A stretch of DNA of 64,000 bases, taken from assembly GCF_011745625.1 (NCBI RefSeq), contig NW_027191479.1, forward strand, positions 248,001 through 312,000. The letters run 5' to 3'. The DNA comes from Cladosporium halotolerans. Its lineage: Eukaryota. Of the stretch, positions 11,689-32,245 are shown in pieces. Numbering within the stretch: position 1 is the stretch's first letter; each line of letters opens with the position of its first letter. The position numbers and the translations under genes were made by a program. Under the pieces are notes generated by a model that saw only the letters and a list, made by a program, of their open reading frames with translations, searched no databases and was not told the origin of the DNA.

Positions 11689-13256
11689 ATGTACAGTCCC
11701 TCAATACTGCTGGTATTCGCTGTCGCACCGTTTGCAAACTCTCGCACCGTCCACAGCGTCCTGGTCTTCAGCCGCCATGGCGATCGTAAGTTTACAACTT
11801 ACAGCCAGGTGATAACGCATTCCAGTATTAACGATGTTAGGTACGGCCAAGCTCTACGAAAGTTACAATATGACCAACCTCGGAGCCAACCAGGTCTACA
11901 ATTCTGGTGATTTTTACAGGCGGCGGTATCTGGTCGATGGCGTCGCCGATCAGATTGCCGGTATCTCGCCAGAAATTGTAAACGCTTCACAACTGTACGC
12001 CAGCGCACCAGATCAAGACGTACGTTCGCGCAGAAATTATTCATACTTGGTCGCGGAAATGCTTATCACACGCACAGATACTCTTGCAGACTGCCAGTCT
12101 CTTTCTTCAAGGCTTGTATCCGCCCCTCAGTGACACATTGGATACTGAGAGCCTGGTAAATGGCACCGACGTTTCGGCCCCCTTAGACGGACAGCAGTAC
12201 ATTCTCGTCCACGGTGAAGACACGAATAGTCCGGACACCATTTGGATCAAAGGAGACAACGCTTGTCCGGCTTATTCGAACGCATCTGAGACTTACGAGC
12301 TAAGTGCGGACTACGCAGCAACCCTCGCTGCGTCTGCAACACTCTACACGAGCGTCGAGCCACTGCTAACTGACATCCTCGGCCCTGGGAATGTCTCTTA
12401 CGCCAACGCTTACGACGTATTCGACCTTCTCAACGTGGCTTCTATCCACAACGCGACAGTGGCGCCAGACATTGCCTCTTCTGACCTCGATCAGCTCCGT
12501 TACTACGCGGACGAATGGGAGTGGAATCACAACTTCAACGCCAGCCAGCCCGATCGGTCTATCGGTGGGATGGCTTTCGCGGGAGGCATCTTGAGACAGC
12601 TCGACTCCGTCGTCGCGGGATCAGCCGATGTCAAGTTCTCCCTTCTGGCAGGCTCCTACGACACCTTCATATCCTTCTTCGGCTTGACAAATCTCTCTAC
12701 CACTTCCCTCAACTTTACCGGTCTGCCGGTCTACGCTTCGACGATGGCTTTCGAACTCTTCACTGCCGCCGACGGCGATACGTTCCCTGCGACTCCGGAT
12801 ACAGACTTGCGCGTCCGCTTTTTGTTCCGCAACGGTACAGATCCCAGTGAGGATCTCATCGCGTACCCGCTCTGGGGCGAGACGGCAGAAGATTATGCGT
12901 ATGGTGATTTCAAGAGCCGTCTAGGTGCCAGAGCCATCAACGACGTCGCGACCTGGTGCACCACGTGCGATTCCCCAGCCTACTTTTGCGTCGCGGAGGC
13001 CGCTGACAACAAGACCGCAAACGCCGTGGCTGCTGCCAAAGAGGACGATACGGGACTCTCGAGCGCTGCTGCTAGCGGCATTGGCGTTGCTGTTGCCGTG
13101 GTTGTCATGTTGATGATTGGTGGACTGGTTGCGTTCCTGATGCGTCGCAAGTCGAACCGGGCCCGCGCCGCTACAAGTCGCCCTACTTTTCCCTCGTCCA
13201 ACGTGGAGATGGTCGAGGGCACCCAAAGCAGTAGGGCGCAGATCAGTCCAGCATAG
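11689..13256 (+). CDS. Histidine acid phosphatase family protein with signal peptide and C-terminal TM anchor; 2 introns (~11787-11840, ~12020-12078)
   Basis: Signal peptide, then the catalytic RHGDRT motif split by intron 1. Many N-glycosylation sequons; C-terminal TM (GIGVAVAVVVMLMIGGLVAFLM). Confidence 0.85.
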
Positions 13257-13535
13257 CGCATCATCCGTCTTTGCCGTTACCGATTTGTACAAAGCTGGTG
13301 CGATCATAAACGTTCATTAATAATTGAGCATGATCGATATACTTTCGCCTCAGCAGCTTCAACACGGCTCTCCCACTCCCGGGGAAGAGCCGTATGGAAT
13401 TGCAGTGAACTTGCGAGGAGCAACAGCCTCACGGCCCTTCCCTGCCAATGTCCTGAGTGGCACAATTGCTGTCATAGCTTCATCTGCCTTCCACGAACGA
13501 ATTTCCGCATGCTGAAATGAGTTCAAGCAATGCCA

Positions 13536-16500
13536 TTAAATGACAATAGCTGATCTCGACTGCCATCTCGAAAGGCGCAGTCTAGTATCGCGAGGCTCAA
13601 CGCCCATGTCGACTGCTCGTAAATAGCAAAGACAGAACGGATTTGTTAGCGGCACCTGTGTAGAGCCATGCACCTCACGTTGCTCATGTGTGTGGACACT
13701 AGTCTCGTGCACCATCTCATTCCCATTACAGCTCTCATCTTCGCTGCCATGAGCTATCATGCTTGCGTTCGAGTCTGACTCCATCACATCGGCCTCCGGA
13801 TATTGAATTTCCAACTGTGCTAGACGTTGAACAATTGACCGATGGCTCGCAATAGTGCAGTCCACGCCTCGGTCCACAAACAGTCTGACGAGACCAAATC
13901 TCCCGCGAAGAGATGCCATGTACAAAGGAGACCTGAAATGACAATCCATGGCGTTAACATCAGCACCGGCATCCAGTAAATCTCTTGCTATCTTGATCCG
14001 TGTCTTTCCCAGCCCTCGCCGTAGACGGTGGTCTTTCCGCGAAGCAAGTTGGTGAAGTGCAGTTTCCAAGACAGTATTGCGAGCGTTGACGTCTGCACCA
14101 GAATCCAGAAGAAGTCGAGTCATTGATATCCTGTTACACGCGACCGCAGAAAAGAGAGGCCTGCACGTTGCTTTACCATCGACATTTGCGCCAAAAGTCA
14201 GAAGTATAGAGGCAAGCTCCACATTGGATGTACCTGCCACGTCTGCCAGCAATGTCACGTCGTCGGCCTCGAGCGACTCGCTATTTGGGTCTGCTCCGTT
14301 TTCTAGGAGCACTCTCACGATAGCGTTGGCGTCTACTCGAGATGCTAGAGCGATGGGACTTTTGCCATGGATCGGTGCAGAAGCATTCGCGCCGTGCTTC
14401 AGCAGCATCCTCACACAATCGCAAGCCGTGCTTTCTATTGCGATATACAGAGGCGGCCCTCCGTTCCCTACCTCGAGATCGGGCTTTGCTTTGCACTCCA
14501 GCATTAGCTCCACAATCTCACTCAAGCGGGCTGCGACTGCTGCCAGTAAGACCGTAGGATTGTTTGTAACAGACGTTACAACGGCGTTGATGTCGCTGTC
14601 GTGAAGGTCACCTGGAAGCTCATCAACGAGGTTTGTTGAGCGAGCTTTGCACCCTTCAGCGGGTGATAAACGTGCTAGTCGATCTCGCAGCATCGCTTTC
14701 GTAAGCTCTTTGCAATGGTATACTACCAGAGCGTACAGCATGACGGGAGTACGATGCGAGACAGATCCGCCGCCTGGGGCGTGCAGAAGTAAGGCCCAGG
14801 CCTTCCAAGGCACGCCTGCTAGCGACGCCAATTGAAAAGCTTTGCCCACGAAAGCAGTTTCCATATGGAGAAGCACATTGTTCAGCGCATAGGACAAGAA
14901 AGGGGTAGAGAATTCCCACTCGTAGGAGTGCATATGATACGAGTGTTGCGAATCGTAGATGTCCGTGCTGGATCCCTGAAGCTGCGCGGTCTTGTCAATG
15001 TACAAAGTCGCTATGTCGGTAATATCTACCGAGTCCTGACAAAGAATCCGTTCGAGATATATCTGGCACCAGGCTCCTAGTAGAGCGTGGCTTTTTGCCT
15101 GCAGGTTGCATCCCAATGTATCGTCGACAGCTTTCATGCCACCTTGAAGAAGGTATTCCCGAACTGATTCATGGATGAACTGAGCCACGGTGACTACCTT
15201 GTTGGGGACGAAATGATCCCACCTCTCTGAGAACTCAATTAGACCCTTAGAGGATGCAATCAGGAAAGCGTACATTTGGCGCTCTGTTGTCTTGGAGGTG
15301 GCCCAATCATCCAGTTGACCGGCGCTTGCCATGACGCCCAAATAAAGCTCCACAAGTGATAGTGGACGATTTGAGAAAAGGACCCACTGCATCGTCGGCA
15401 GGAAGAATGGCGTGCGGTCGATCACAATTGTTCTCAAAAGATCGTTGATGCCGACGGGCACCCTTTCCAGCTCTTGAAATACTTGCGAGCGTGTCTCGCC
15501 ATGGTCAATTTTCTTTTTGACGATCGGGAGGGCGAGCACAGTCCATAAGAAAACTCCAGATGATCGGTGCGAAATTTCGTCTTCGAGCTCACTCATGAAA
15601 GGAAGATTGAACCCAAGAAGCTGCTCATGCACATAAATGGATATGTCCTCATAGTGCTCCTCTCGCGCATCGATATTGATGCTTTCGTGATGCGAGATAC
15701 TGATCCGGGGGTAATGTCGACTTGCGAAGCAAACGGAAAATGAGATATCACGAGAAGTAGTCGTCCCGCCAAGGCTTTCGAAAAATTGGACGGCATCTCT
15801 GATGGAGTCTTCCTGGCATTCATCGAGCGCGTCAATGAATAGAACCAATCGGTGGTCGTTTCGCAATCCCAAGACCGCATCCCGCAGCATGTTTTGCAAC
15901 ATCAGAACCGACCAGTTCCGTTTTCTCTCAACCAACCAACTTTCAACGGTCGATTGTGGTAGCAGAGTAGGCAGCTGCGTGAATAGCTGATGTAATAAAG
16001 ATCTGTACATTCCCTGAGTGGTTTTCTCCAGCCTATGTCCACGGGCGTTGAAAAAGAATGACAACACCGTGACATCGTGACGGCAGGAACTGCCCAAGTG
16101 CTTCATTGCGCATTTCATCAGTGTCGACTTTCCGGCACCAGGCTTACCTTTGATCCAGAGAAAGCCGTAGTGCAAAGTGCGGTAGTGCGGACTCAGCCAT
16201 CTAAGGTACGGCAAGGTGTCGAAGATCCACAAACAGGTTCCTGAATGCGGTGCAGTGATGTTGGCCAGACGAGACCCCATTTGAGCATACCCAAGATCGC
16301 GGATGAAGTCATCGCGGTCGGTTTGCGCAGTCCTTCGGGCTCGACCTTGTCCCTGGTCCAACTCCCCCGGAAACGTGCCAGAATACACTGTCTGTCGTTT
16401 GATGTATGTGTCACCAAGCTGCGATCGGGCGTTGCCTTTAACAGTGATATGATGGTAATCGCTTCCACGGTCTGGGGGTTTTGAACGCTCTTTTCGAGCT

Positions 16501-16766
16501 GTTGTATCTTCATCGCTAGATTGCGATGATATTGAGTCTCCAGAAGACCTTCCCTGTGACGATGCGCGGTCTTTCGTGGGGGCTTCCCGACCGTCGTGTG
16601 AGCTCGCCTCTTTCGCTTGAGGGCGAGTTTTCAGTGTCGTTAAGTGAGACTGAGATGAGTCCGGTCTCACCGGTGAGACTTTGAGGGCACCTCGGTGTCG
16701 TAAGGGTACCCGCGGCGGAGCAGCCGGAAGGTGATTCTGCGCCCCTGCCGCCGGCAATGCCTGCAT
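13536..16766 (-). CDS. NLR-like protein: HRAM-like motif - NACHT NTPase - ankyrin repeats
   Basis: Walker A (WIKGKPGAGKSTLMK), Walker B (LFIDALDEC), SSGVFLW and FIHESVREYL motifs; C-terminal ankyrin repeats (LLKHGANA, LLENGADPN, LLDSGADVNA, LLDAGADVNA). First ATG at 16766. Confidence 0.88.
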   Translation of the reverse strand: MQALPAAGAQNHLPAAPPRVPLRHRGALKVSPVRPDSSQSHLTTLKTRPQAKEASSHDGREAPTKDRASSQGRSSGDSISSQSSDEDTTARKERSKPPDRGSDYHHITVKGNARSQLGDTYIKRQTVYSGTFPGELDQGQGRARRTAQTDRDDFIRDLGYAQMGSRLANITAPHSGTCLWIFDTLPYLRWLSPHYRTLHYGFLWIKGKPGAGKSTLMKCAMKHLGSSCRHDVTVLSFFFNARGHRLEKTTQGMYRSLLHQLFTQLPTLLPQSTVESWLVERKRNWSVLMLQNMLRDAVLGLRNDHRLVLFIDALDECQEDSIRDAVQFFESLGGTTTSRDISFSVCFASRHYPRISISHHESINIDAREEHYEDISIYVHEQLLGFNLPFMSELEDEISHRSSGVFLWTVLALPIVKKKIDHGETRSQVFQELERVPVGINDLLRTIVIDRTPFFLPTMQWVLFSNRPLSLVELYLGVMASAGQLDDWATSKTTERQMYAFLIASSKGLIEFSERWDHFVPNKVVTVAQFIHESVREYLLQGGMKAVDDTLGCNLQAKSHALLGAWCQIYLERILCQDSVDITDIATLYIDKTAQLQGSSTDIYDSQHSYHMHSYEWEFSTPFLSYALNNVLLHMETAFVGKAFQLASLAGVPWKAWALLLHAPGGGSVSHRTPVMLYALVVYHCKELTKAMLRDRLARLSPAEGCKARSTNLVDELPGDLHDSDINAVVTSVTNNPTVLLAAVAARLSEIVELMLECKAKPDLEVGNGGPPLYIAIESTACDCVRMLLKHGANASAPIHGKSPIALASRVDANAIVRVLLENGADPNSESLEADDVTLLADVAGTSNVELASILLTFGANVDGKATCRPLFSAVACNRISMTRLLLDSGADVNARNTVLETALHQLASRKDHRLRRGLGKTRIKIARDLLDAGADVNAMDCHFRSPLYMASLRGRFGLVRLFVDRGVDCTIASHRSIVQRLAQLEIQYPEADVMESDSNASMIAHGSEDESCNGNEMVHETSVHTHEQREVHGSTQVPLTNPFCLCYLRAVDMGVEPRDTRLRLSRWQSRSAIVI

Positions 16767-17056
16767 GTCTCTGGTCACAAGACATTTGCGAGTCCGCGAA
16801 GAAAGAGGACAAGATCCCTCGGAGTATTTCTTGCCTGCTGGAAAGAAGAAGAGGTCCAGACATCCGGCTGAGAAATCAGGTGACACAGCTGAGCTCAAAC
16901 CTTATGCACAAGCCGGAATCACAATTGGACGGGAGACATTGTGGCTTGCATGCGCATATTCCCAAGGGCTGCATTAAGCCATCATGCCCAAGACGTGCTG
17001 CAGGAAGTACGCGAGAACTGCTCGTAGTGAAAGGAATGGAATGCAGAGAACTTGCT

Positions 17057-18632
17057 CTAAGTAGTGCTGCCAACCTTATGTAAAATTGCAAACCACGTAC
17101 CAAGCATCAGCACAGAGAATACCAACGTGACCTGTATCAAATACTCGATACCGAGTGTTGTGGCTAGAACCCCAATCGCAAGTGGAGCGACGGCGGCTCC
17201 AATTTGACCCATAGCTATCAAGAACGCAACGATGATACCACGCTGCTGCGAGCTGAAGTTCGGGGCCAAAAGAACAATGCCCGAGGGGAACAAAGGGGCA
17301 AGAAAGAAGCCACACGCTCCGACGAGAGCTAGGGTCGGTCCAAGCTGCCTGGCAAGAGTGAGACATAGCTGGAAAATGATTGTAGCGACGCAGTACATGA
17401 CCACAGCGATGCGCACGCCAAGTCGATCTGTGAGCAAGCCGAGGGAATACCGACCGAGGGCCATCCCAGTCCAGAAGATAGACGAAGCGAACGCGGATTT
17501 TGCGGGTCCAGCAGACGAGCGACGGGATAGGAAGACGACGATCCAGTCAGTGTAAGAAGCTTGGTTGGAGTCAGCATGGCCGTCAGAATTGATAGATCAT
17601 GACGCCCTACCTTCAACACACTGGTAGAAGAAGTAAAAGATACTCATGACCCACACACTGCGCTGAGTGAGCAGGTTCCGGAGTTCCACTGCCTCATCAG
17701 CGTCCACCTCAGATTGAGCTTGCGCGCGGGTATCGTTGCGGAATGCCCAACACTGCGCGAGAAGCTCTAAGAATGCTAACATAGACTTCAAAGCGTCAAT
17801 GATACGATCAGATGTCAGGCACACGCCAGGAAGAATCGAGACTTACGAGGATCTCATAGAACGTGGCCCATGCATAGCTTTCCAAGACTGCTGCCGAAAC
17901 TAGTGGCCCGAAGATACATCCACCGGCAAATGATCCATGAAGAATGCCTTGCACGACGTTGGCATGACGCATGCCGCCGGCCCAAGTATTCCAGCGGTAT
18001 CAGTGACGCCAGTCCCATATCCGAAGAATGCATAGCTTGCAAGGACTATCGAAAACGGAGGTTTCAAGCTGAGCGTCATGGCTGCAAGCAATCGTAGAAT
18101 AGCAGCGACAACAGCGATTGCCCGGCGCCCTCCATGGACCTCGATGACTCTGACTGTCATCGTGGCAATTAGATAGCCAAGCACCCCGGCTGGGAAGATG
18201 AAAGCAACCCGAGCGTCAGAGATCTGGAAGTGGCGCTCAATCTACAGTCGTGTGTCGTTGGGTCAGTAGCTGAGTACGGATGAGCTATGATTGATACGAA
18301 CGAACGTCAGGAAGTAGGGCCTTTCAAGGTCAGCGCAAGACGCACGCGAGGTAGACGCTCGCCAGGCTACAAAGGGAAAGTCTTACACCGATGGCAGACA
18401 TAGCAAAACCGCTGGCGAAGAAGTTGATGGTCGTGGCGGTCAACTTAGCATAGAACTCATCGGGATGCGACGGGTTGAGCTCGTGCTGACATGGATTCAC
18501 TGGCTCATCGGCGGCATCGGTAGCGTTGGCCACGCCATATTGGCATGAGGAGTCTGGTGTCAGAAGAGGTTGGCGTTCGTCTGACTGCACAATGGAATCC
18601 TCAGTCACTACATGGCCAGCTTGAAGCGTCAT
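17057..18632 (-). CDS. MFS transporter (Bsc6/fucose-permease-like), 5 exons including a 15-nt microexon (18320-18306); apparent -1 frameshift at ~17994
   Basis: Spliced SAIG|ALLPD|IERHF, GMRHANVVQGILHGSFAGGCIFGPLV, FWTGMALGRYSLG, GFFLAPLFP; multiple TM helices. The conserved frame changes at DTA/WNTW without room for an intron. Confidence 0.75.
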
Positions 18633-19320
18633 GTGAGCGGGCGTGCCGGTGGAGCTCAATCTCAAAGCTGGCGGCGCCTGTTTCAGACGGTCAAACCGGA
18701 AAACATTCGATACTAGAAATCAGAACAGACAGTGTCCTTCATGCGCAACGAAAGAAACAATTGCGAGCAGATCAGATGTGTGGTACGGTGTCAACGTTGC
18801 GTCTGGACGAAGCCTCGATCGGCGACGCGCCCAAGGGTCTCGCTCGGCAATGCAATCGCAAGCGGGGAAGGCGGCATTTCCGCATTGAGCCGCGTTCCAC
18901 CAGGTATCAATTATCTCGTGTGCCGTGGCATCAAGAGATGTCACCGGGAGTACCTCATTGATATGTCCCGAACTCCTGCAATGAAGGTGCGATTTTGCGC
19001 GCAAAGTTCCATATCCGCGGAGGTTGATGATCGGCCATCCGCCAAGTCCTCGGAGTTCGTGATGTCGTGGGCAGAGACAAGATAAACCGTTCCCTCGGAG
19101 TCGCAATCGCTCCGCGGAATCCTGCTCGGCGCTTGATATTTGACAGAAGATATGAAACAACTCCTTGTCAGTCGTGGCGATGAAGACATGGCAATCTTTT
19201 GTGGCTTCCTTGCATTTCGTATCAACCCTCGGTGGTATAATCTTATCCTCGGACGGCCGTGAATGATCGAATTTCGCTTTGAACTTTTGCCGTTAATCAC
19301 TGCAAAGGACTGACGACACC

Positions 19321-20184
19321 ATGGCTTGCACCCTGACCACCGGACACGCCGCTCGTATAGCGGCCCGGAAGAACAAGTGGGCTCAATCGACGTCGGGACT
19401 CGCCGATACATATCTGCAAGCCAACCTACTCGTCCTTCCATCCCGCTACGCCGAAGCCTTCCGACAACTCTGCGCCCGCAATCCAGTACCTTGCCCCTTG
19501 ATCGCCGAATCGACAAATCCGGGCGATTTCGCAATGCTCAAATCCCATCTGCCGCAAGTACGCGACGAAGACCTAGCAGCCGATCTCGACCTCCGCACCG
19601 ATTGCCCTCGATACAACGTCTACGCTGACGGCAAGCTGGTTCACACTGCAGTCAACGACATCCTTTCCCAGTGGACTAGCGATCATGTGGCGTTTGTCAT
19701 CGGCTGCAGCCAGAGCTTCGAGTCTGCTCTGATCCGCGCAGGAGTGGAGATCCGACATCTCAACCAGCAGCGTACGGTCCCGATGTACCGTACCAAGTTA
19801 CCGCTCAACCCATCCGGCATTTTCACCAGCTCAACGTACGTCGTTTCAATGCGTCCGTTCAGGAAGCAGGATATTGAGCTGGTGCGGCGAATTACGAGAC
19901 GTTACTTGCCTACCCATGGAGAGCCAATCGCATGGGGATGGGATGCTTTGGAGCGACTTGGTATCATTGATATTGACGATGTGCAATGGGGCCACCCACC
20001 CCTGACTCAAGATGGTCGGCCTTTGCATGAGGTTTTCGGGGACAGTGAAAATGTGCCGGTCTTCTGGGGTTGCGGTGTCACTCCGCAGGAAGCCGTCATG
20101 AAGGCTGCGCTCGAAGGTACTATCATGGCACATCACCCAGGAGAAATGCTGGTGATGGATTGTCGAGAAGACGACGTTCTGTGA
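19321..20184 (+). CDS. DUF1445 / D-glutamate cyclase-like putative lyase (YcsI/DGLUCY family), intronless
   Basis: Family motifs TSGLA..YLQANL, CARNPVPCPL, DLRTDCPRYNVY, IGCSQSFE, VPMYRT, VVSMRP, HGEP, VPVFWGCGVTPQ. Confidence 0.88.
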   Translation: MACTLTTGHAARIAARKNKWAQSTSGLADTYLQANLLVLPSRYAEAFRQLCARNPVPCPLIAESTNPGDFAMLKSHLPQVRDEDLAADLDLRTDCPRYNVYADGKLVHTAVNDILSQWTSDHVAFVIGCSQSFESALIRAGVEIRHLNQQRTVPMYRTKLPLNPSGIFTSSTYVVSMRPFRKQDIELVRRITRRYLPTHGEPIAWGWDALERLGIIDIDDVQWGHPPLTQDGRPLHEVFGDSENVPVFWGCGVTPQEAVMKAALEGTIMAHHPGEMLVMDCREDDVL

Positions 20185-20258
20185 GGAGCCGTGGAGGTGA
20201 CAACCTTTACAATGCCCTAGCTGGCGCCACAGCAATGATGGATCGGGTCTCAACTAGA

Positions 20259-22590
20259 TCATTCCATCAGGCTGCTCCAGCCGGCGAGGTCGTTTAAAGA
20301 TTCTTCAGTAACAAGAAATCCAAGATCGGAGTCTGGCTGTCCCATGTTGTTCTGCCAAGGAGTCGACAAGGAATTACCGCCATTGTCAAGAAAGCTAAGG
20401 TAGTCCTGTTCAACGTTCGGAGATTGTCCATGGGACTGAGGACTGCTTTGTGTCACGCTTTCGATTCCAGTCTTGATCTCCACAACACACGGCCAAACCG
20501 TGCTGACAGAATCCATGACATCGAGGATTTGGTCGAGAGGCTTTCTCACAGAGATGGCCGACCATGAAGATTCTTCAAGTCGTTTCTTCAAGAGAATGAT
20601 TCGGGCAGCAGCAGCTAACGTGTGAACACTCTCTAGAGGTAGGGTCCTTAGAGAATAGTGCCGCTGGTAGCTACTCAGCAGACGAAGAATCGCAGCAAGC
20701 GATTGATAGCAAATATCGACTTCCTCGCTTCGTGATGACAAATCTTCGTCCGAACATCGATCTGGGGGTCGATGTAATATGATCATACCAGTATGAAACG
20801 CCATATGTAGGTGCAAGATGTAGTGTGGTACTTTCTCGATCTTCCAAGGGTTCCATTGCAGCTTCTGCGGGAGTTGTGAGAGCCATCGCTCGAGGAGTGT
20901 GTGAACGTGGTTGGCGGCTTGCACGATTCCACACGTCTGACTGGCTTGCCGCTCACGATTCTCGAACACCGTAACGATCATTGTGTGGAAGATCTTTGCA
21001 AGCTCTACTCTGTGGACAAAGCTGCCGACAACCGCGATCCCGTCTTCGAATGCATTGACAGATGTCCCTCCGGCGATGTATGTGTCGAGCAAATGCTCCC
21101 ATTCTGGAGGATACGGAATACGGATTGTGTTTCGCACATCCGCTTCCTGCGGGTAAAGAGCCGGAGGTCGACCGAAGTAGAGGCTCATTTGCTTGTCTGC
21201 GACGAACACTGCCCAGTACACTCTTCGAAGGATTTCTCGATCAACTGAAGAGGTCGCTTGACCGAGCTCCCAGTTGCTGGGATCGAGATGTAAGCCCATC
21301 TCATGTGCGAGTCGGAAGGCCATTCCACAGAACAGCCATCCTTTCGAACCTCGTCCTTGGCCGACTTCCAGCGGGCCGAGTATCATCAGAGTTTGCAATG
21401 TTGTCAAATCTGGAGAGACAAGGGACGCGAAGGCCTGGCTCTCGGCGTACCTGGAGAAGCTTAGGTAAGTTGAGTGCAGGTTATCATCTTCCGAAACCAG
21501 AGCTCCAAGAGCGCAAATCGCCGACAACAGCATGTCAGAGTAATAAGGACCGCTGCACTTTGCATAGTCTCGTAGGAAGAACTCTCTGTAGATGAAGTGA
21601 TTGCTCTGGTAGCAGTTGGCGAAGAACAAGGATACCAGTTGACGGCAGACAACATCATGAGGCGCAAATGGAGACGGCTGCGCATTTCCAGATGCTGGCA
21701 AAGTGCCTGGAGCCACGTGGGCCGTTCCTTGGAGTGGCGAAAAGGAAGTCGCTCCGGACTTCGCGGCAACGCTGGCTGCGGGAGTTGGAGCGGGCACGTT
21801 CATCTGAAACAAACTGGTACCTCCAAAAAATTGAGTGGCCTGCCGCGAGACCATCTTCCTCATGCGTCCGTCGCGAGACCTTTCATTGGTGAGAGATTCT
21901 GCTGCCGGGGAAATGACTGGTAAGGTCTCCCTGTTCTCAGTGCTCGGCGCTACAGGATTATGGCTTCTTGCGGGACTCGTCTGCGGTGCAACATCTTGCT
22001 GAACTGCTATTGTCAAGTCGTCATCGTCGGGAGCCTCCAGCACTGTGTCTGCGCTTTGTTCATTGGCTGGTAGAGCGCCCGATTCACTGCCCGCCACGTC
22101 CGTGAGGTCCTGAATGAAAGAACTCATGGAGTTGACGCGGGTCTCTAGATTGTTCACATACTTACGTGATACTGGTCTGGCCGTTGGTCAACAAGCGCAC
22201 CTTTCCACGTGCCAGGGTTGGGACAGGACACAATTGCAGGCAATATCCAGGGATGCTCCTACCTGCGGCGACTTTCTACTGTTGAGTAGTTGCACTCTAC
22301 ATTGTTCTCTGTGCACCGAGAGCAAGGCTTCTGGCGGTTGCATTTGACCTACATTCTATCATCAGCACCAAGACATGCCTTGCCCCATGCTAATGCCAGA
22401 ATGCGAATCCTGGAGCAGTCCAGGCACTGACTTTGCGCTTGCGACATCTCTCGCAACTGAAGATACCCTAAGGTGTCAGCATGCTATTACAGAAGTGTTG
22501 TGACTGTTGCGTGTCGTACGATACGCGGTGTGGCCCCGCCGAAGGAGTGCCGCGCGCGGCGGTCGCCCTTTGCGCAGGGCCCTCGGACAT
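20259..22590 (-). CDS. Zn(II)2Cys6 transcription factor with Fungal_trans middle homology domain; 3 introns in the 5' part
   Basis: Spliced binuclear cluster CERCRKRK|VKCNRQKPCSRCTENNVEC; GMAFRLAHEMGLHLD and RRVYWAVFVADKQMSLYFGRP. Confidence 0.88.
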
Positions 22591-23111
22591 TGTCCGAAAA
22601 GGGTCTGTAAGGGACAATTGATGTCGTTGGGGACGAGGAGAGTGTCTTCCTCCGGGCACAGACGCCGTGGCGAAAGAGATGCGAGGAGCGCGAGGACCAA
22701 GTTGAGTGGAAGCAGAGGAGCGCGAGAGGACAGCAAACTCCGCGGGGGTTCGGCCTCCGAGGAGCGCGCGAATGCCTTGCAGCCTAGGCGCTTATCGTAA
22801 CCTCCGATCACTTGATACGGCCAATCTATTCTTCCCCCACGTACCACGAGAGAGAGGCGGTCGCGTTAGATTCCATGCGGACAGAATGGGGAAATCGATC
22901 CGTTTATCTGATAGATGTTGGCTGTCGTTTCTCCCGCGGCAGTTTGCCCTTCTGCATATCTTCCGAGGATGAAGTCCTGGGCCTTCCTTTGCAGACATAC
23001 AAACATGGAATGCTTTCTCGACATGTTCTCAACTGACCACAAGTTGGCAAATATTTCAATGCGCTGATTTGATCAACACAAACGACAATCGACGATCGCA
23101 TATCCAAGAAA

Positions 23112-24655
23112 ATGTCACAGCCGACCCAGCCAGGCCCGCTCACTGGTGAGACTGCAAAGATAAACAGCAGCCTGGATATGAACAGTTGCGAGAAGCGTCC
23201 ATCACAGAATGCTGACATCGAAATCTACGTCGACCCTGTCATCGAGAAAAGGATTCTGCGGAAACTCGACTCACACTTGGCTCCGATCTTCATGTCGCTT
23301 TACTTTCTTTCATATCTAAACAGGAGCAACATTGGCAATGCCGCCGTGGCCGGCATGAACGATCAGCTCAATCTGAGTGCTGGTCAGTACAGCACTGTTG
23401 TCAGTGTTTTCTACGCGACTTACGTTGGCCTCATTTTCCCTCTGGTCCTGGCTCTTCGGAAGATGAAGCCTCATCGCGCCATGACCGTCATGGCTACAGG
23501 CTGGTCTCTTGTCACCATCGGTACTGCCTTTTGCAAATCTTATGGCGCGCTTGTCGCATGTCGGCTACTCCTTGGAGTATGCGAAGCCGGATTCTTCCCT
23601 TGCATCTCGTGAGTTGGCTCCTTCATGGTACAAAGTGTCATCCGCTGACTGTGAGGTGGTCTTCAAGTCTCTACATGACCATGATATACAACAGGCAGGA
23701 GCAAGGCTTACGCTTTGCGTACCTGTTCAGTTCGATGGCCTTGTCTGGCATGTTCGGCGGTCTGGTGGCGACTGGCATTACATACATCGGAACTGCCGGA
23801 GGTCTCCGCGCATGGTCGTGGTTATACATCATCGAAGGCGTCGTTTCCCTCACCATTGTGCCATTCGTTTGGTTCGGTCTGCCAGAGAATCCCGCCCAAG
23901 CCAAGTTCTTCACAGCAGAAGAGTTGGAAGTCCTGGCAGCTCGCGAATTGAAACGGAGGGAGTACATGGGCGATTCCAAGTTTTCTTGGGCTCAGGTCCG
24001 CTCGGTCCTTGGGCACTGGAGAATCTACGCCGCGGCATCGGTCCAGTTCCTCCAAGACATCGTCCTCTACGGCTTCTCCACCTTCTTGCCATCGATCTTG
24101 CGGAATGATCTGGGCTACACTGGTCTTCAGGCTCAGTATCTCAGCGTTCCAGTGTATGCGCTGGGCGGCATCAGCTTCTTCGTCGCGGCTATGCTAGGCG
24201 ATAGATACGGCCTGCGCGGCTCTTTCCTGGCATTCTTGGATGTTTTCGCAGTCGTGGCATACTTGCTGATCTTACTCGTCCCCATCAGCGGCGTCAAGTA
24301 CTTCGCTTGCTACCTCGTCGCGTTGCCGCTCTACTGCGGAGCCGGACTCAACGAGATGTGGATCGCAAACAATACCGCACCCCACTATCGCCGTGCCACC
24401 GCAATAGGTTTCTCGCAAGCCATCGGCAACCTTGCTGGTATTGTCTCCGGCCAAGTGTACCGCGGAGCTCCGTACCGGCTCGGAAACTGGTTCTCGTTCG
24501 CCTGCACCGTTCTAGCGATGATGCTCATTGCCGTGCAGATTATGTACTTCAGGCGGCTCAACGCCCACAAAAGCAGGATCCAGAGAGGGGAAATCGCAGA
24601 TGATCGGGTTGGCGAGGAAGGAGAAGACAACCTCGAGTTTCGATACATTTATTAG
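23112..24655 (+). CDS. MFS anion:cation symporter (Dal5/Tna1 allantoate/nicotinate permease family); one intron ~23609-23667
   Basis: LSYLNRSNIGNAAVAGM, RLLLGVCEAGFFP, WSWLYIIEG, NNTAPHYRRATAIG, C-terminal EFRYIY. Confidence 0.9.
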
Positions 24656-26273
24656 ATTGCCATTGCATAGGATCTAGACAGAGATTGAAAGATCGAGCTT
24701 AAGATTTGCAACTTCCGATCGAGCCACAGGTGGTTGACTCAAGTGAGCAGGTCTGCAGGGTATACTTTGGCTGTCTGCTATGAGGGTCCTAAAAAAGAGC
24801 TCCGAAGTGACTGAGAGACGACGAAGGAATCCATGTGAGGTTTTACCATGGAGATCTTGTGAACTATGGTGGCTGCAGAAATGGTGTGAACGCACGCTCC
24901 AGCGACCGTCCCATTCCCATCTGAGCGTCTAGGTCCTACACTTCGATCGAGCTACCAGGAGCTCGTCGTCGCTAGGCATCCCTTGCGACATTGTTACAGA
25001 TGACGTAGTAATAGAAACATAATTGGTTCGTCCGACCTCGTCCGACAGGTGATGGAGGTGGCGCTGGAAATACCACGTCCGTCCAAGCGCCGGCAACCGG
25101 GCTGAAGGTACAGTGTTACTCATCAGCGCCTTGCGCGACGTATTGGCTCGAAGTGAGGGGTGCAACGACGCCCTGGGCTAGAAAAGGAATGCCGGACGGA
25201 AGGGCTGGGGTGTAGGTACTGTAGCATCCGGGCCGCTCGCTGGCTGACCGGAGTACATGACACTTGGTAGCTGAAATCCTGAACGTAATTCTGTGATGTG
25301 AGTGTAATCGTAGTCATCGCATAGCTGCGGCACAGTGAGCACGGGCGTGAATGGAGTGGATATTTCCCCAGTTCTTGGGTGGAGTAGTGGTCCTGGCGCG
25401 CAAGGCTGGTGAAGAGAGCACGCGACTCGGGCGATGTGGAGGAGAGAAGAAGGCTCGCTTGCTCCGTCCGGCGCGTGTGGATGTACCCTTGTACTTTGTT
25501 TAGGCATGTACAGCGCATGTCGGCAAGGCGAGTCGCAGCGGGGAAAGCAGGGCTAGTCAGACAAGCTTCTGCATGGGCAAGATCCGGCGCAAGGCGTGCA
25601 GGCTGCGAAGAGGGCGTGTGCCTCCTCGCCGGCGGAGGAAGCGCTTGGCCGCATATACCATCCAGTTCGGGAGTAGGAGGCCTTCTAGCCGGCTTCTAGC
25701 GCCTCGTCGGGCAGAAATAGCCGGAGTCCTGAGGAATTTACAGCGAGTAGCGCGTTGCTGTGCGTCCGGGGCAACGGCGTCCGGCAGTCGCGGCCCCGCT
25801 TATTGCCGCCAACCCGGCCAGAGCGCGCCCTGCCACGCCTGGAAGGCTCGAAGGCTCTCGTCAGCGCCGCCCGCAGCCCGCGCGCAAACCTGAGGTGTGC
25901 GACGCCTGCTCGCCTTTTATCCGTCGCACTTCCCCTCCCTCGCCCGCGCAAACACATCCACAACACTCACACATATCAGCGCCAGTCCGGCCCACGCTCA
26001 CTCACCTCCTCTTCACACACCGACATCCTCACCGTCGACACCCACACCCCGTCACGTGCGTCTCTGGCCCTCCGCCCTTGCCTTCTCCACCATCTCCGCA
26101 CTGCCGCCCACACGCACGCGACCGCACACCACACGACCACCCACACCGACTTATGCGCCTGGCGAATTAGCACCCGCCGCCACCGTCTCGCTCTCATAAC
26201 CTCTTCGCGACACGACATCAATCAAAAAATACCACTACAACCTCTCCAAAACACACTCCACCCCACCGTCGCA

Positions 26274-26760
26274 ATGTTCCCCGTCGAATCTCTCCACCCG
26301 CAGTACGTCGAAGAGCAGGGCGCCGTCTACGCCGCCAGACACCAGCGCGCCCTTGAGCAGGCCGCCGCTCAGGCTGCCGCTCAGTCCGCCGCCACCTCCT
26401 GCACATCTTCTCCCGCCCTCACGCCTTCGGCCAGCGCGCCCCAGCCTACCAACAAGGCGCCGCAGGGCCCATGCCCCAAGACTCTCACCACCGCCCTCCT
26501 CAACCGCCAGCAGACCACTCGTCCCTCTGGTGGCTTCTTCGGTAACATCATTCAGGGCTTCTCCAGAGCCAACTCCGGCACTGTCACCCCGTCTTTGACC
26601 CGCATGCCCACGCCTGCTAGGGAGAAGTCTCAGGCTGAGATCGATGCTTTGATTGCTGAGCAGAAGAGGGATGCCGATATTGTAAGTTGCACCTGCAATG
26701 TGACATTCGTAGAAGGTGCGCATACTGACCGTTATCTAGTGCGCCATGCCTTCCTGGTAA
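26274..26760 (+). CDS. Small hypothetical protein (142 aa); exons 26274-26681 and 26740-26760
   Basis: ATG after an A/C-rich leader, biased codon usage, canonical GTAAGT...CTGAC...TAG intron in phase 0 giving the C-terminus CAMPSW*. Confidence 0.6.
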
Positions 26761-27433
26761 ACAGCATACCCAACACCAAACACCTTGGCAGCCGAATTTT
26801 CTTTGCTTTTGACGACGACTCTATGATTTCCCACAATGGCACTCCACAAGCGCGGCGTCGTTTTGAGTCTCCTGCATCAACATGGCTTTTAGCGAGCACG
26901 GAGTCTGGAGGCTTTACTTATACCCATGGTGTGTGATACTCGGTATGGTTTTGCTTTTTGCTTTGCTTTGCTTTGCTCTGGGCGGTATGCGAGCAGCGGA
27001 TTATTTGCTTTTCACGGCGTTCAAGTTTCTTTGGTTTCGGGATCCAGGCACGATGGGCACTACTAGCGGAAGCGCGCGCATGAATCGATCGACAGTACCC
27101 AGATCAAGAGCTACACAGCCTCTTACCACTCTAATTAGGTAGTGCGATTATGAATAAATGTTCATCAGTATCTTTTCGTCCTTACTCGAACCCATATGAC
27201 GAAGTCACAGCCCTCGACGTGTCTGAAGCAAGGAGGAACCAACGAGCATTCCGTCCCCTCGCCATGACGCAACTGCACTACCGTGGCACCGCCCTGAAGA
27301 AACACCAGACTGCACCTCTGCCTCTCAGTCTCGCACACGCGTGCATTCACTCCAGCCTATCAAGCAATACCATCGCTCCACAACCACCGGCGTCACCACC
27401 CTCAACCACCAAAGGTCACATCACAAACAATAT

Positions 27434-27444
27434 AACAACAACAG

Positions 27445-27473
<29 letters not shown>
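27434..27473 (+). repeat. (AAC)n microsatellite directly upstream of an ATG
   Basis: About 13 AAC units with one AGC interruption. Confidence 0.9.
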
Positions 27474-27476
<3 letters not shown>

Positions 27477-27845
27477 TCCACCAACCCCACCCCAACAACA
27501 AAATCACCAACGACAACCCGCTCCCCTCGAAGCCCAAAGTCCCCACAAACGAAATCCCTTTTCGCGCCGAGGACCCCTTCGAGCAAAGACGACAATTGGT
27601 TTCCGGGCTCGAATCCCCCGCCGCGGCCGCCGCATAGGGTTGGCACTCCGGACGGCGGGAGGGTGGATGGGGGTTTGGGTGGAGCTGGGAGTGGCAAGGG
27701 AAAGGTGCTGGAAGGGACGGCTATGGGGTCGGAGAGGGAAGGAGCAGATGGGAGAGGAAGAGGAGAGGGGTTCTTGGGGAGGGTTTTGATGGTGTGGAGG
27801 AGGGGTTGGGGGCGGGTTTGGGGAAGTGGGAAGAGAGGGGCGTGA
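27474..27845 (+). CDS. Possible small low-complexity hypothetical protein (123 aa)
   Basis: ACAATG start context. P/T/S-rich N-half and Gly-rich C-half, with the same C-rich to G-rich switch seen in real genes of this window. Confidence 0.4.
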
Positions 27846-28614
27846 GATAATTTCGAGAAGCTGGGACTGAGAGGACAGAGGGAACTTTCGTCGGCGCTCG
27901 GCTGGGTGGGTAGGAGGGGGCGGTCTGTCCTGGTGCGACTGTGGCGGCGTGGGTGAATGGAGGGTACAAGACGCTGGGGAAGTGTACTTGGGTGGTGCAT
28001 TGCTGGATTTGGTGATTGCGGTAGACATCGCTGGAAGCTTCCCTTAGTGTGGGTGATAAGGATCCCGTTCCATGATCGAATGGAAACCAAGATCAGATGA
28101 GGCGCAGATAATATGTGTGAGCTGCTACTAGGGTTGACTTCAGTCTGGTAAGGCTATTCCTCTCAGGTCTATGCATATTCTATCTGGCGCGGTGGTGATG
28201 AAGCCAAATTTGCAGGTGAGTGACAGTCGAATGGTGATAAATATGGTTGCTTAGCGTGAAGTCAAAGACCATGGCTTTCTTCGTTGCGAATCGACGTTTC
28301 AAAATACCGGTCAATTCCAGTATTAACTACAGAAATGGGCAGCACGTTCTTGCCTTTTCCTCGAATCTGAACATGCAACGAGAAGGAGAGCAACCAGGCA
28401 TCCATGCAGGCGCCCACCTGCTCTTATTATTAGAGTGTCTTTCTGACGAAGTGCATCTGGTCACGTCACTGCTTGACCAGCTCCCTGCGACGAGAAACAA
28501 CATTCGGCATCAGCATCATGCTGACACTCACAGCTCTGGACTCCCCACTCGGCTCGAGATCGTGTCCCTTAGTCAATCTCGAGCGGTTATTTCCGGCTTC
28601 CTTAGACCGTCGAA

Positions 28615-31600
28615 ATGGCGAACGCATCTGGATCCAGCAGGCTGTACCAGCAAATCCGCATGAGCGGTAACTCGAGGGCACACTTAGGCGACACTTACCA
28701 CTATGGCCCATCGGAGGATCAACACATACTTGAGTCAATACTCGAGACCCTCTATTACCCAGAGATGAAGATTAGAAGTCGCAATGTATCCGATGCGAGC
28801 ACGGACACTTTTGAGTGGATATATGAGGAAGGCACTCTCCGACGACACGATGAGAAGGGCAATCAAAAATACTCAGGGCGATGGGAGAGCGCATATGAAG
28901 AGGATCAAGTGGCTCGGAGTGGTTTCGCAACAAACTTCCGCAATTGGCTGGAGGCCGCAGATGACAGAGTGTTCTGGATCACTGGCAAACCTGGCTCGGG
29001 TAAATCGACGCTGATGAAGTTCTTAAGAGACCACGAATCAACAGACGCTAGCCTCCGCAAGTGGACTGATGGACATAGACTCCTCGTCGCTGACCATTTT
29101 TTCTGGTTGCCTGGTGATACCTTGCAGAATTCCGTGGAAGGTCTTTTGAGGGCACTTTTGCACGATGTATTGAAGTGTCTCTCCACGGATCTGTCGTCCG
29201 CTAGAACCATATGCGGCCCTAAGCGCTGGAGTCTGGAGGGAAGCCGACGTTCCTGGTCGCTCCGTGAGCTCAAGGCAATGATCATGAGGATCCGCTCAGC
29301 GACTGACTTACGCGTGTTCTTTTTCATCGACGTTCTTGATGAGTGTTCCCCAAAACATTCGCACGGCCAGCTCATTGATCTTCTGCTAGACTGTTCAAAG
29401 CTGCCAAACTCGAAGCTTTGCATCTCAAGTCGGTCTTGGGAAGACCTCAAGGTTAGACTGAACGATTGCTTGTCGATCGAGCTAGACACGCTCACGCGTC
29501 TCGATATGCTAATTCATGCGGACGATCGGTTGGTGAGGGCCACATTTGGGCAAACAATGGATCCCAGCGCACAATTCGAGATTGAAGAACTCGTCAAAGC
29601 TCTGACAGACCGTGCTTACGGCGTCTTCCTGTGGGTCGAGCTCATGCTTCGTGAAATGGAGGTAGAGATCAGGAAGCGAAGAGGTCTGCAAAACTTGCGA
29701 AACATCTTGGAAGATTTCCCTTTGGGACTCGACGAATACTTTGCCAAATTTGTCTACGAGCGTATCTCGAAAGCGAGCGGCAACATCTCAGACACTGCCA
29801 GCGTTCTTAAGCTTGCTTCGTTGCTACATGAAGCGAAAGGTAGCATGCGGACAGCATCTTTCATTCCTTTCTGGCTTCTTAGCAATGGCGCCTACTGCTC
29901 GTCGACAAACTACCCGACTTCTGAGACCGCGAAACTGAGTGAAGGTGATGTCGAAACAATGCTCAGTCAAACTCGAGCATTCCTTCACGAAAGCTGCAAC
30001 GACTTGCTGGTACTATCGAATAACAGAAACTTTTCTCGTCCAGGTACGGCTACGTACATGGCCCTTCGTTGTGATGTCGATTTCTTACACCGAACAGTTT
30101 ATGACTACATTATGGCCCTACCGGAGAAGATCTTGCTCGACGAAAAATGTCCCACTCGATTCAAAAACACAAATACTTTGTTCCCAGATCGTCAGCAACG
30201 TCTTATATGTATGAACTTCTTGGCCAGGACAACGGCTGTTTCAGTGGGACCAATGCTTTTTTCTGGGCCATCGCGATGCGAGATTACGTCGAGATTGAAC
30301 ATCGCTTCCAATACCAAGAAGCATGCGAAAGTTTCGCATTGAAGCACCTGTCGTGTCCAAGATCATGCTTGGGCTTACACACCGCGTTTCAACCCATGTT
30401 TCATATGATGTGGGATTTTTCACGATCTTCCCGGTTCATGCGAGTAACAGTCCAAGAATGGCCTCATACCGGTATCTGTGATTTACAGCCGATCCCAGAT
30501 CACAACTTCAAGGGTTTCATGCCAATCAATTGTCTGAAGCGCGGTAACCTTTGTGGAGACTGTGCGCAGTACTTCCAGGGCTGTCTCTGCTTTGGACTTG
30601 CGCCATTGCAGTGGTTGGAGTCAGCTTCGGAGCAACATTTAGAGCCTACTGTCATCGATGTCTCCATATGGACCCAGGGGAGCCCAGACGCGATGACTCG
30701 CGAGTCGATACCTTTTGACACTCATGTTAGATGGTCCCACGTTCCTCAGAGACTTCGGGTGTCCCGTGATTGCAAAGAGTTAGAGGGCCGACTTTTGAAT
30801 TGCGAGATCTGCGATACTAAGATGGTCAGTTCAAGGTATTGCGACCTGAAAAATATATTCTTGACGACGGAATACACTTCATACAACGCCCACAAGCTCA
30901 ACCACATGCGAAACTGCGAGGCACTGCATATTTCGCTGGACAAAGACCCCAATACACGAAACATCTTGCTTGCATCAATGTCATTCGATCTACCGACATC
31001 AAAGGATATTATAGTAAAGAGCGTGGGAGTCTCGTCCACGATTCCGTCTTTCTCGGCATTCGTTTGGCGGAGACAGAAATTGAAGGCTGTCAAGTCCTTG
31101 CTCACGTCGTTGAAGAAGCAGTTTCACGCACTGTCGTCTTAGGATTTGAATATGGCGTGCAGTATGATCGTATGAAAAGTTTGATCAATGAATGGGTGTG
31201 GTTTCTGTGTTCGTTTGCTCCAAATCTTGACGACTTCCAGCAGTGCCGGTGCGACGGACGCTGCAAACGATGCGACTTTCTACCAGAAAAGGAAGGTAAA
31301 CTTATCATCTGCCTGGCATGCGACGAGTTCTCCCAGATCTGCGAGGGGTGCTTTGGCCATTCGGTGTCTGCGCACGGATGCGACGATGGACATCCGAGAA
31401 TCAGCATCCGTTACAGACCCGACCGAACAGACGAGGAATGCAAGTTACTAGATAGTCTCAACGTGATGCCTGCCATGATGGCTTTGATTGACTGGTATGT
31501 GGAGACTGCACCGCAGTATGGACTTGACTACACGATCCCTTCGCATGTAGAGGCAACACGGGGAGAATTGGGGCGCCTCTCAGAAGAGTTCATCGCAAGG

Positions 31601-31615
31601 TTCGCTTCAATGTAG
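28615..31615 (+). pseudogene. NLR-like NACHT gene (HRAM-like N-terminus - NACHT - C-terminal ZZ-like Zn finger) split over three frames
   Basis: Walker A (FWITGKPGSGKSTLMKFL), Walker B (FFIDVLDEC), AYGVFLWV, VDFLHRTVYDY. Coding-like sequence continues in ORFs 30147-31142 and 30839-31615; I found no convincing introns to join them. Confidence 0.7.
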
Positions 31616-32245
31616 CAAATTTGGTTGAGATCGAGATCCACTGCAGATAATGTAATTTACGAAGGCATTTCTGTAGTTGTCTGTCAGAGGCTTCTGCATT
31701 CACGACGAGAGTCCCTTCGTGATCATCCGTAGGTGCAGATATTGATAGACTACGCAGAGAACCACGCTGAAGTTTTCGCTTCTGTTTTCATTTCACGCGA
31801 ATCGATAGAGAAACCAGCAGCGGGTATAGCGGCCGTCAAGCGTGCTTTACATCACTGCTCGCGTTTAGCAGCCTAAGGCTCTCTATTTTAACATTGTTCA
31901 CCCGTGTGCAGTGTGATGTGAGCTGGCCGGCTGTTCTCGCGGCGAATTCTCGGCAAAACGATCCAACCTCCGAGGGTCGAGCTTCATTGCTCGCGACAGC
32001 CATTCACATGCCGCCGACCGCGCGACACAGACAACACCTTTCGATTCACATCCGCAGTACTTGCTGCTTTGCGCGCGACTTGGAACAGACCGTATCCCCG
32101 CGCTCAAACCCTGGTTCCTTCACTGGACCCAAACGAAGCCTTCACTCGCGCAGCGGCGTCTACTGCAACCACGCGACTTCCTCGAACCTACTAGGGTACA
32201 CGACAATCACACACCAGCGGCCGCGTGCCGCTCGCAATAGCGACC

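Follow-up and report, generated by a model that had tools for sequence, protein, structure and literature searches.

What would a short motif do ahead of the NTPase domain of two dissimilar fungal NOD-like receptors (NLRs), when the DNA around them encodes no recognisable partner? The question is raised by a stretch of 64,000 nucleotides from the filamentous ascomycete Cladosporium halotolerans (RefSeq assembly GCF_011745625.1, contig NW_027191479.1, positions 248,001 to 312,000; hereafter the window, numbered from its first letter). It encodes two NLRs, here called NLR1 and NLR2, each with one copy of the motif. The sequences are best explained by placing both motifs, each of which precedes the NACHT domain of its receptor, in the HRAM1/HRAM3 neighbourhood of the HET-s-related amyloid motifs (HRAMs); the two receptors are distant relatives of each other. 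We consider it likely that they are receptor-side (r0) HRAM tags that would nucleate amyloid and template an unlinked executioner, NLR1 being a candidate receptor and NLR2 a recently disabled gene that is still transcribed.

Two HRAM-type motifs and their family

The NLR2 open reading frame (ORF) begins at an ATG at 28615 and opens MANASGSS-RLYQQIRMSGNSRAHLGDTY. An earlier note on this DNA had placed the motif at 28639-28698 on the forward strand, as aa 9-28 of a NACHT protein, and translation confirms this. The NLR1 motif, SDYHHITVKGNARSQLGDTY, is encoded at 16404-16463 on the reverse strand; on recomputation it shares 10 of 20 residues with the NLR2 motif, at the positions that the earlier note had listed. 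The motif is real and not a product of chance. In the six-frame translation of the window, G[ND].R..LG[DN].Y matches at two sites only, those of the NLR2 and NLR1 motifs, with a chance expectation of 0.0003 matches per window (from residue composition) and no match in any of 40 shuffled windows.

Daskalov 2015 (PMC4518210) gives as common to all HRAM groups hydrophobic residues at positions 5, 8, 10, 16 and 18, a glycine at 19 and a preference for Arg or Lys at 15. Following that work, we number the 21-residue unit so that the glycine of LGD falls at position 19. The NLR2 motif is then hydrophobic at all five positions (Y5, I8, M10, A16, L18) and the NLR1 motif at four (Y5, I8, V10, L18), with a small polar residue, S, at 16; both have R at 15 and the glycine of LGD at 19. 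The same source describes r0 motifs as showing I8/G12 covariation, as S/H-rich and charge-poor, and as differing in make-up from effector-side motifs. I8 is paired with G12 in both of our motifs, which are likewise rich in Ser and His and poor in charge. The subclass marks given there are N, Q or H at position 3 for HRAM1, HRAM2 and HRAM3, and Q at 18 or 16 for HRAM4 or HRAM5, the border between HRAM1 and HRAM3 being called blurred (PMC4518210). Neither of our motifs has Q at 16 or 18, and they are therefore not HRAM4 or HRAM5.

NLR-borne HRAMs mostly start at residues 5-9 (Wojciechowski 2022, PMC9815663), and the start of the NLR2 motif at aa 7-9 fits this. The NLR1 motif is also a single copy but internal, at aa 102-121; the orthologue P0142 and the relatives P0183 and P0193 are equally extended. 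The extreme N-terminal position that the earlier note gave for NLR2 thus holds, and it does not extend to NLR1. It had also put the NLR2 motif directly ahead of NACHT: the order is right, with a linker of 79 aa in between and NPHP3_N starting at aa 107.

To describe the family we built a profile (A1) from 13 motif pieces of 30 residues, all receptor-side copies. Scored against 1.84 billion representative sequences, it matched 87 proteins with E<=0.001, for the most part at the N-terminal end of NACHT proteins. We set aside P0123, P0133, P0140, P0195 and P0198, which are simple-repeat proteins, and located 90 motif instances in the remaining 82 with an anchor pattern that requires R/K15 and G19, so that these two columns are not independent evidence. 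The motif lies within the first 60 aa in 70 of the 82 proteins. The consensus of the 90 instances is P-G-H-x-Y-x-[NH]-[IV]-x-[IV]-S-[GD]-N-A-R-[AV]-H-L-G-D-x-Y, with H (40), N (16) and R (11) at position 3. At least three motif-bearing NLRs (P0018, P0143, P0182) come from Cladosporium fusiforme, and the accessions KAM0719655.1 and KAM0714008.1, motif-bearing NLRs of that species, are later than Wojciechowski 2022. Among the 120 homologues of NLR2 listed, 16 have the motif at the N-terminus, and several others are N-terminally incomplete models.

The likeness between the NLR1 and NLR2 motifs is ordinary for this family and points to no shared partner. Over the same 20 positions, 89 distinct instances have a mean pairwise identity of 8.3 residues, 29% of pairs share 10 or more, and in 39% of the members from other organisms the motif resembles that of NLR2 as closely as the NLR1 motif does, or more closely. 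The 10/20 match reflects common family membership and not a private relationship.

We compared the motifs with Pfam. The family PF17108 (HET-S), which we take to be built from NWD2-like r0 motifs, matches NLR2 aa 1-30 at E=1e-4 and 22.5 bits. It matches five of the 13 motif-family pieces at E<=10. PF17108 is described as a family neighbouring NACHT (PMC11467057). The HET-s Pfam model matched only 38 of 155 two-repeat HRAM effectors (PMC4518210), so Pfam models under-detect the HRAM family.

The motif recurs in varied settings. Among the profile matches scanned with Pfam, the linker between the motif and NPHP3_N ranges from 33 to 100 aa, and the C-termini are ankyrin repeats, DUF7791 or a GPIID winged helix. 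The A1 matches also include small non-NLR proteins with two or three tandem copies and no known executioner domain. P0125 combines a zinc finger, three copies and ankyrin repeats; P0126, P0155 and P0176 have two copies each; P0145 and P0188 have three behind a signal-peptide-like start; and in P0189, a Cys-rich protein, two copies near the C-terminus are separated by an 8-aa loop and followed by an FPFGG tail. An eighth multi-copy protein, P0151, looks like an NLR, with two copies ahead of its apparent start. Seven of these eight multi-copy proteins match the HET-s prion domain PF11558 weakly (E 0.0076-0.14), several of them across both repeats. P0189 scores 30.3 bits against PF17108, above the cut-off, and both the 8-residue loop and the FPFGG tail are what Daskalov 2015 (PMC4518210) leads one to expect of an effector-side domain. 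Pfam detects no HeLo, HeLo-like, SesA or PNP_UDP domain in P0189, and the ESM Atlas offered no usable match to it.

The earlier note had named one outcome that would tell against its proposal, namely that the motif is a folded part of the NACHT N-terminal domain. An AlphaFold2 model of NLR2, made from 12 aligned sequences (mean predicted local distance difference test score, pLDDT, 73.5; predicted template modelling score 0.71), leaves aa 1-29 unstructured, with pLDDT <50 and no secondary structure, and has a confident helix from aa 34. Taken with the varied settings above, this describes a portable, unstructured module and not a part of the NACHT fold.

State of the two receptor genes

NLR1 and NLR2 are both NACHT/NPHP3_N STAND NTPases, with Pfam scores above the cut-offs (24.8 bits for PF24883, 26.7 bits for PF05729). 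Their features are collected in Table 1. As the earlier note had it, the two are divergent and end differently: an alignment of 518 columns gives 23.4% identity, with ankyrin repeats at the C-terminus of NLR1 and, in NLR2, DUF7791 without recognised repeats. The best named relatives of NLR2 among the 120 homologues listed, at 28-35% identity, belong to Cladosporium and other Dothideomycetes.

Table 1. Features of the two receptor genes, in window coordinates.
Feature	Position	Strand	Details
NLR2 motif (HRAM-type r0)	28639..28698	+	HRAM position 1 = aa 7, G19 = aa 25
NLR1 motif	16404..16463	-	aa 102-121 of 1076, behind a Ser/Arg/Pro-rich extension
NLR1 gene, intact	13536..16766	-	1076 aa; ATG as in orthologue P0142
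NLR1 NPHP3_N/NACHT domain	15717..16241	-	PF24883, 103 bits
NLR1 ankyrin repeats	13851..14543	-	Ank_2 at 99 bits and further Ank families
NLR2 open frame in this strain	28615..30342	+	off the ancestral frame after ~aa 518
NLR2 NPHP3_N/NACHT NTPase	28933..29451	+	aa 107-279; Walker A GKPGSGKST, aa 124-132; PF24883 81.2 bits, PF05729 30 bits
NLR2 DUF7791 match	29914..30165	+	aa 434-517; PF25053 28.8 bits, profile positions 54-138 of 162; stops at the frameshift
54-nt GT..AG segment, spliced out in X3 contig	30044..30097	+	in frame; aa 477-494
NLR2 first frameshift	30165..30168	+	frame 1 to frame 3; 2 nt at 30167 absent from X5 and X6
Ancestral NLR2 coding, now frame 3	30165..31139	+	90.8% identical to P0003 aa 419-743; stop-free
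NLR2 second frame change	~31139-31142	+	from protein alignments and the sequence
Ancestral NLR2 C-terminal coding, now frame 2	31142..31612	+	89.8% identical to P0003 aa 745-901; Cys-rich; stop-free

The orthologue P0142 aligns with NLR1 gap-free over 1076 aa at 95.9% identity, and its start corresponds to the Met at codon 45 of the long NLR1 ORF of the window; we therefore take the NLR1 gene to have the extent given in Table 1 and to be intact. P0142 keeps 18 of the 20 motif residues, and both substitutions are conservative for the motif family. The NACHT model PF05729 scores 32.3 bits, and the C-terminal sensor, the ankyrin repeats, is in frame with the NTPase. NLR1 is thus a candidate working receptor.

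Contigs from four public sequencing runs were aligned to positions 13000-32000 of the window. Two runs, X1 and X3, are from the same organism, and two, X5 and X6, are from relatives that are ~96.5% identical to the window. X1 contains every word sampled and is possibly the source sample itself, and is therefore not an independent witness. X3 is RNA-like: its contigs are short, intergenic cover is nil, and seven joints have GT..AG or CT..AC ends that fit the gene strands. NLR1 (13634-16803) has no contig cover in X3, from which, the data being contigs, one can conclude neither that the gene is silent nor that it is expressed. A structural difference lies next to this receptor gene, past its 3' end: in place of 141 nt at 13386-13528, X5 and X6 carry 1290 other letters. 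Small shares of the window also occur in air, dust and urban metagenome runs, on which nothing here is based.

NLR2 is in a different state. Its orthologue P0003 (901 aa) is 92% identical, and P0004 is 45% identical. When searched against the window with tblastn, these two proteins align in frame 1 to 30168-30180, in frame 3 to ~31139-31163 and in frame 2 to 31585-31612. The alignment of P0003 skips no DNA at either junction, so the junctions are frame changes and not introns. X5 and X6 lack 2 nt at 30167, precisely where the frame first changes, whereas contigs of X1 and X3 match the window there and retain both. X3 covers NLR2 from ~28216 to 31385 at a depth of 4-15, motif included. In this strain, NLR2 is a transcribed, truncated allele with two frameshifts.

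The product of NLR2 ends at a TGA at 30340-30342 and has 575 aa without splicing; the X3 splice shortens it to 557 aa. The AlphaFold2 model gives its out-of-frame tail, aa 536-575, a pLDDT <50. The last 480-odd ancestral codons now lie in two other frames, which puts the sensor region out of frame with the NTPase. The truncated protein ends soon after the NACHT/winged-helix part and is without ~430 residues of the ancestral C-terminal region; NLR2 is therefore probably a decaying or non-sensing copy. The damage looks recent, since the out-of-frame parts are stop-free and ~90% identical to P0003.

Several further features of NLR2 were observed. The spliced-out aa 477-494 contain FLHRT, which is invariant or nearly so in homologues (R493 is invariant), and the splice at 30044-30097 may be cryptic or alternative, in a decaying gene. 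The ancestral C-terminus in frame 2 reads CRCDGRCKRC...CLACDEFSQICEGC, is conserved in the homologues P0004 to P0009 and matched no Pfam family; it may be a zinc-binding sensor module. The P0003 model begins at the match to NLR2 aa 99 and so is without the motif, either because the N-terminus has been lost or because the gene call is short. Upstream of NLR2, at 27426-27506, lies a trinucleotide repeat (poly-T, poly-N or poly-Q, depending on the frame), at which the X1 contigs break.

The search for a partner

The earlier note had seen no gene in the window for a HeLo/HELL effector with two repeats, and our searches agree. HeLo, HeLo-like, SesA and PNP_UDP domains are absent from 45 long ORFs of the window, which were picked from its 168 ORFs of >=110 aa, so that short exons could have been missed. 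When A1 and a 40-aa alignment (A3) were run unfiltered against every ORF of at least 20 aa, scores came from the two NLR sites alone, and these belong to both models by construction; the next best score was 6.3 bits. Simple PP, PUASM and sigma-like patterns had no match in the window either. As the partner is not within the 64 kb, it is unlinked or absent.

A wider view was obtained by scanning, with the motif profile, 895 kb of metagenome sequence in 80 loci that hold relatives of NLR2. The motif was found only at the NLR N-terminus, in L001 (45 bits), L005 (42 bits) and L034 (25 bits) and more weakly in L070 and L047, and the profile found no second copy in any of the 80 loci. No effector domain occurs in the 9-10 kb upstream of L001, L005 and L034, whose downstream flanks extend for only 0.2-2.3 kb; the 24 largest flanking ORFs of these three loci are housekeeping genes. 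Unlinked partners are typical of the NLR2 clade. Separately, a pattern for two copies matched once in the 80 loci, in an Arg-rich ORF of L020, which we judged to be spurious.

The 87 A1 matches include no known executioner, so the link to one rests on the literature. This absence carries little weight, since the copies behind A1 are all from the receptor side and those of effectors have a different make-up. A word-indexed search for longer proteins with A3 returned only P0206, an N-terminal NLR fragment, and P0142, and one with NLR2 aa 1-40 for proteins of similar length gave no candidate with three words in common; for technical reasons, both are uninformative on absence.

A partner at a distance has precedent. 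An adjacent NLR was found for 98 of 155 HRAM effectors, the clustering being called 'common but not systematic' (PMC4518210). The motif NLR12 of Wojciechowski 2022 (PMC9815663) is an HRAM3-like motif on 110 NLRs with only four neighbouring partners, which are PNP_UDP effectors with a single copy; its NLR-side to effector-side ratio is 5.7 to 1. NLR12 occurs on many NACHT NLRs with varied C-termini within one genome, at least 14 in Trichoderma harzianum among 30 of the 56 rows of that paper's table. The same paper has a section on signalling between genes that are not adjacent, and speculates that many NLRs controlling one effector would relieve the need for co-localisation (PMC9815663). The earlier note had held the arrangement in the window to be the best candidate for an undescribed system; its 'dispersed network' is already in print, in the accounts of Daskalov 2015 (PMC4518210) and Wojciechowski 2022 (PMC9815663). 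The motif-bearing NLRs of Cladosporium fusiforme, at least three in number, fit this picture as well.

Interpretation and comparison with known systems

By analogy with NWD2/HET-S, the two motifs could work as follows. The motif would be disordered in the resting NLR monomer. Upon oligomerisation of the NLR, neighbouring motifs would stack into a rung of a β-solenoid-like amyloid, which would impose its own fold on the C-terminal motif of an executioner, and the executioner so templated would then kill the cell. The executioner would be expected to be a HeLo, HeLo-like or SesA protein with two copies, or a PNP_UDP protein with one, encoded outside the window; it may be unlinked or absent, for which this class of motifs offers published precedent. 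What the sequences show is the motif, its family and modularity, a window without a partner, and the frameshift; that the motifs form amyloid and template a partner, and that there is an effector and of which kind, we infer by analogy.

Several observations weigh against this explanation. The PF17108 score of NLR2 is below the curated cut-off of 24.3 bits, and for the motif piece from NLR1 Pfam gives no match at E<=1. A1 has no match at E<=10 among the sequences of solved structures in the PDB, HET-s included. At position 3, NLR2 has R and NLR1 has S, neither of which is one of the N, Q and H subclass marks, and the NLR1 motif has a serine at core position 16 and lies ~100 aa inside the protein. 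The low pLDDT of NLR2 aa 1-29 comes from an alignment of 12 sequences and is weak evidence of disorder. The second frameshift of NLR2 (~31140) is known only from protein alignments and the assembly. Finally, no motif-bearing effector was found in the window, in the loci of relatives or among the profile matches, and the 87 A1 matches include no HeLo, HeLo-like or PNP_UDP protein.

The lack of a partner could mean that the motifs are orphan relics, that is, real HRAM-type tags in a genome without a matching effector, left over from NLR birth-and-death and with no part in signalling. We think this unlikely. The frameshifts of NLR2 and the 64 kb without a partner are what such relics would show, a truncated NLR might be better tolerated if the executioner were absent, and in some genomes NLR-side motifs far outnumber effector-side ones (PMC9815663). 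However, the NLR1 gene is undamaged and its product is 95.9% identical to P0142, 18 of the 20 motif residues being retained, the NLR2 motif is still transcribed, and unlinked effectors are documented for the class (PMC9815663). Alternatively, the motif may be HRAM-like in pattern only and function without amyloid, as a binding site, a degron or a lid that regulates NACHT. The Pfam scores, with both NLRs under the cut-off, would allow this, as would the absence of a PDB match and of a motif-bearing executioner from the profile searches. It is nevertheless very improbable in our view: the five-position hydrophobic register with R15 and G19 follows the published HRAM rule, multi-copy versions align weakly with both repeats of the HET-s prion domain, the motif occurs behind linkers of variable length and also outside NLRs, and it is unstructured in the AlphaFold2 model.

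The earlier note had also raised the alternatives that NLR1 and NLR2 cross-seed each other or, specifically as a pair, share one effector. Their motifs are of the same class, 12 kb apart and 10/20 identical, whereas elsewhere the two proteins are 23% identical. Yet that degree of identity is ordinary, 39% of the family members from other organisms being equally near to the NLR2 motif or nearer; NLR2 is truncated; and seeding from receptor to receptor, or homotypic seeding, would have no known output in the absence of an executioner. We give this pairing hardly any credence. A more speculative extension of the r0 reading is that the histidine-rich r0 subfamily (P-G-H-x-Y...A-R-A-H-L-G-D-x-Y) signals to an undescribed class of executioner, for example P0189-like proteins, on which many unlinked NLRs would converge. 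A1 did find multi-copy proteins and no known executioner among the 87 matches, but a receptor-only profile is biased against effector-side copies, and we regard the idea as a long shot.

If the two motifs are r0 HRAM tags, as we favour, the known repertoire of fungal amyloid signalling gains from the window an intact receptor and a decaying one. The window would provide a clean example of the unlinked, many-receptor arrangement, until now described statistically only, and would capture NLR birth-and-death in action, in a recent frameshifted allele that is still transcribed and retains its amyloid tag.

How do NLR1 and NLR2 compare with known systems? The PP, sigma and PUASM motifs of fungal NLRs and the RHIM of mammalian RIP kinases embody the same principle, a short amyloid tag common to receptor and executioner. 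Their sequence patterns are different, and simple patterns for PP, PUASM and a sigma-like motif have no match in the window. HRAM3 is nearer: H at position 3, its mark, is found in 40 of the 90 family instances, whereas NLR2 has R and NLR1 has S. NLR12 is near as well, judging by its published description: it sits on many NLRs with varied C-termini, its effectors are rarely adjacent, and its NLR-side copies are in excess. The single-copy PNP_UDP partner of NLR12, by contrast, was not met among the window ORFs or the profile matches.

The most instructive comparison is with NWD2/HET-S, the HRAM1 pair of Podospora anserina. There, a HeLo gene is adjacent and position 3 is N, whereas the window is without an adjacent HeLo gene and position 3 is not N. 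The C-terminus of NWD2 consists of WD40 repeats, whereas those here are ankyrin repeats (NLR1) or unrecognised (NLR2), and A1 misses the HET-s structures. The systems agree in the placing of a single 21-residue motif before the NACHT domain of an NLR, in the hydrophobic register 5, 8, 10, 16 and 18 with R15 and G19, and, for NLR2, in a weak match to PF17108. NLR1 and NLR2 would thus represent no new kind of system and would be an ordinary further example of a known HET-s-family tag.

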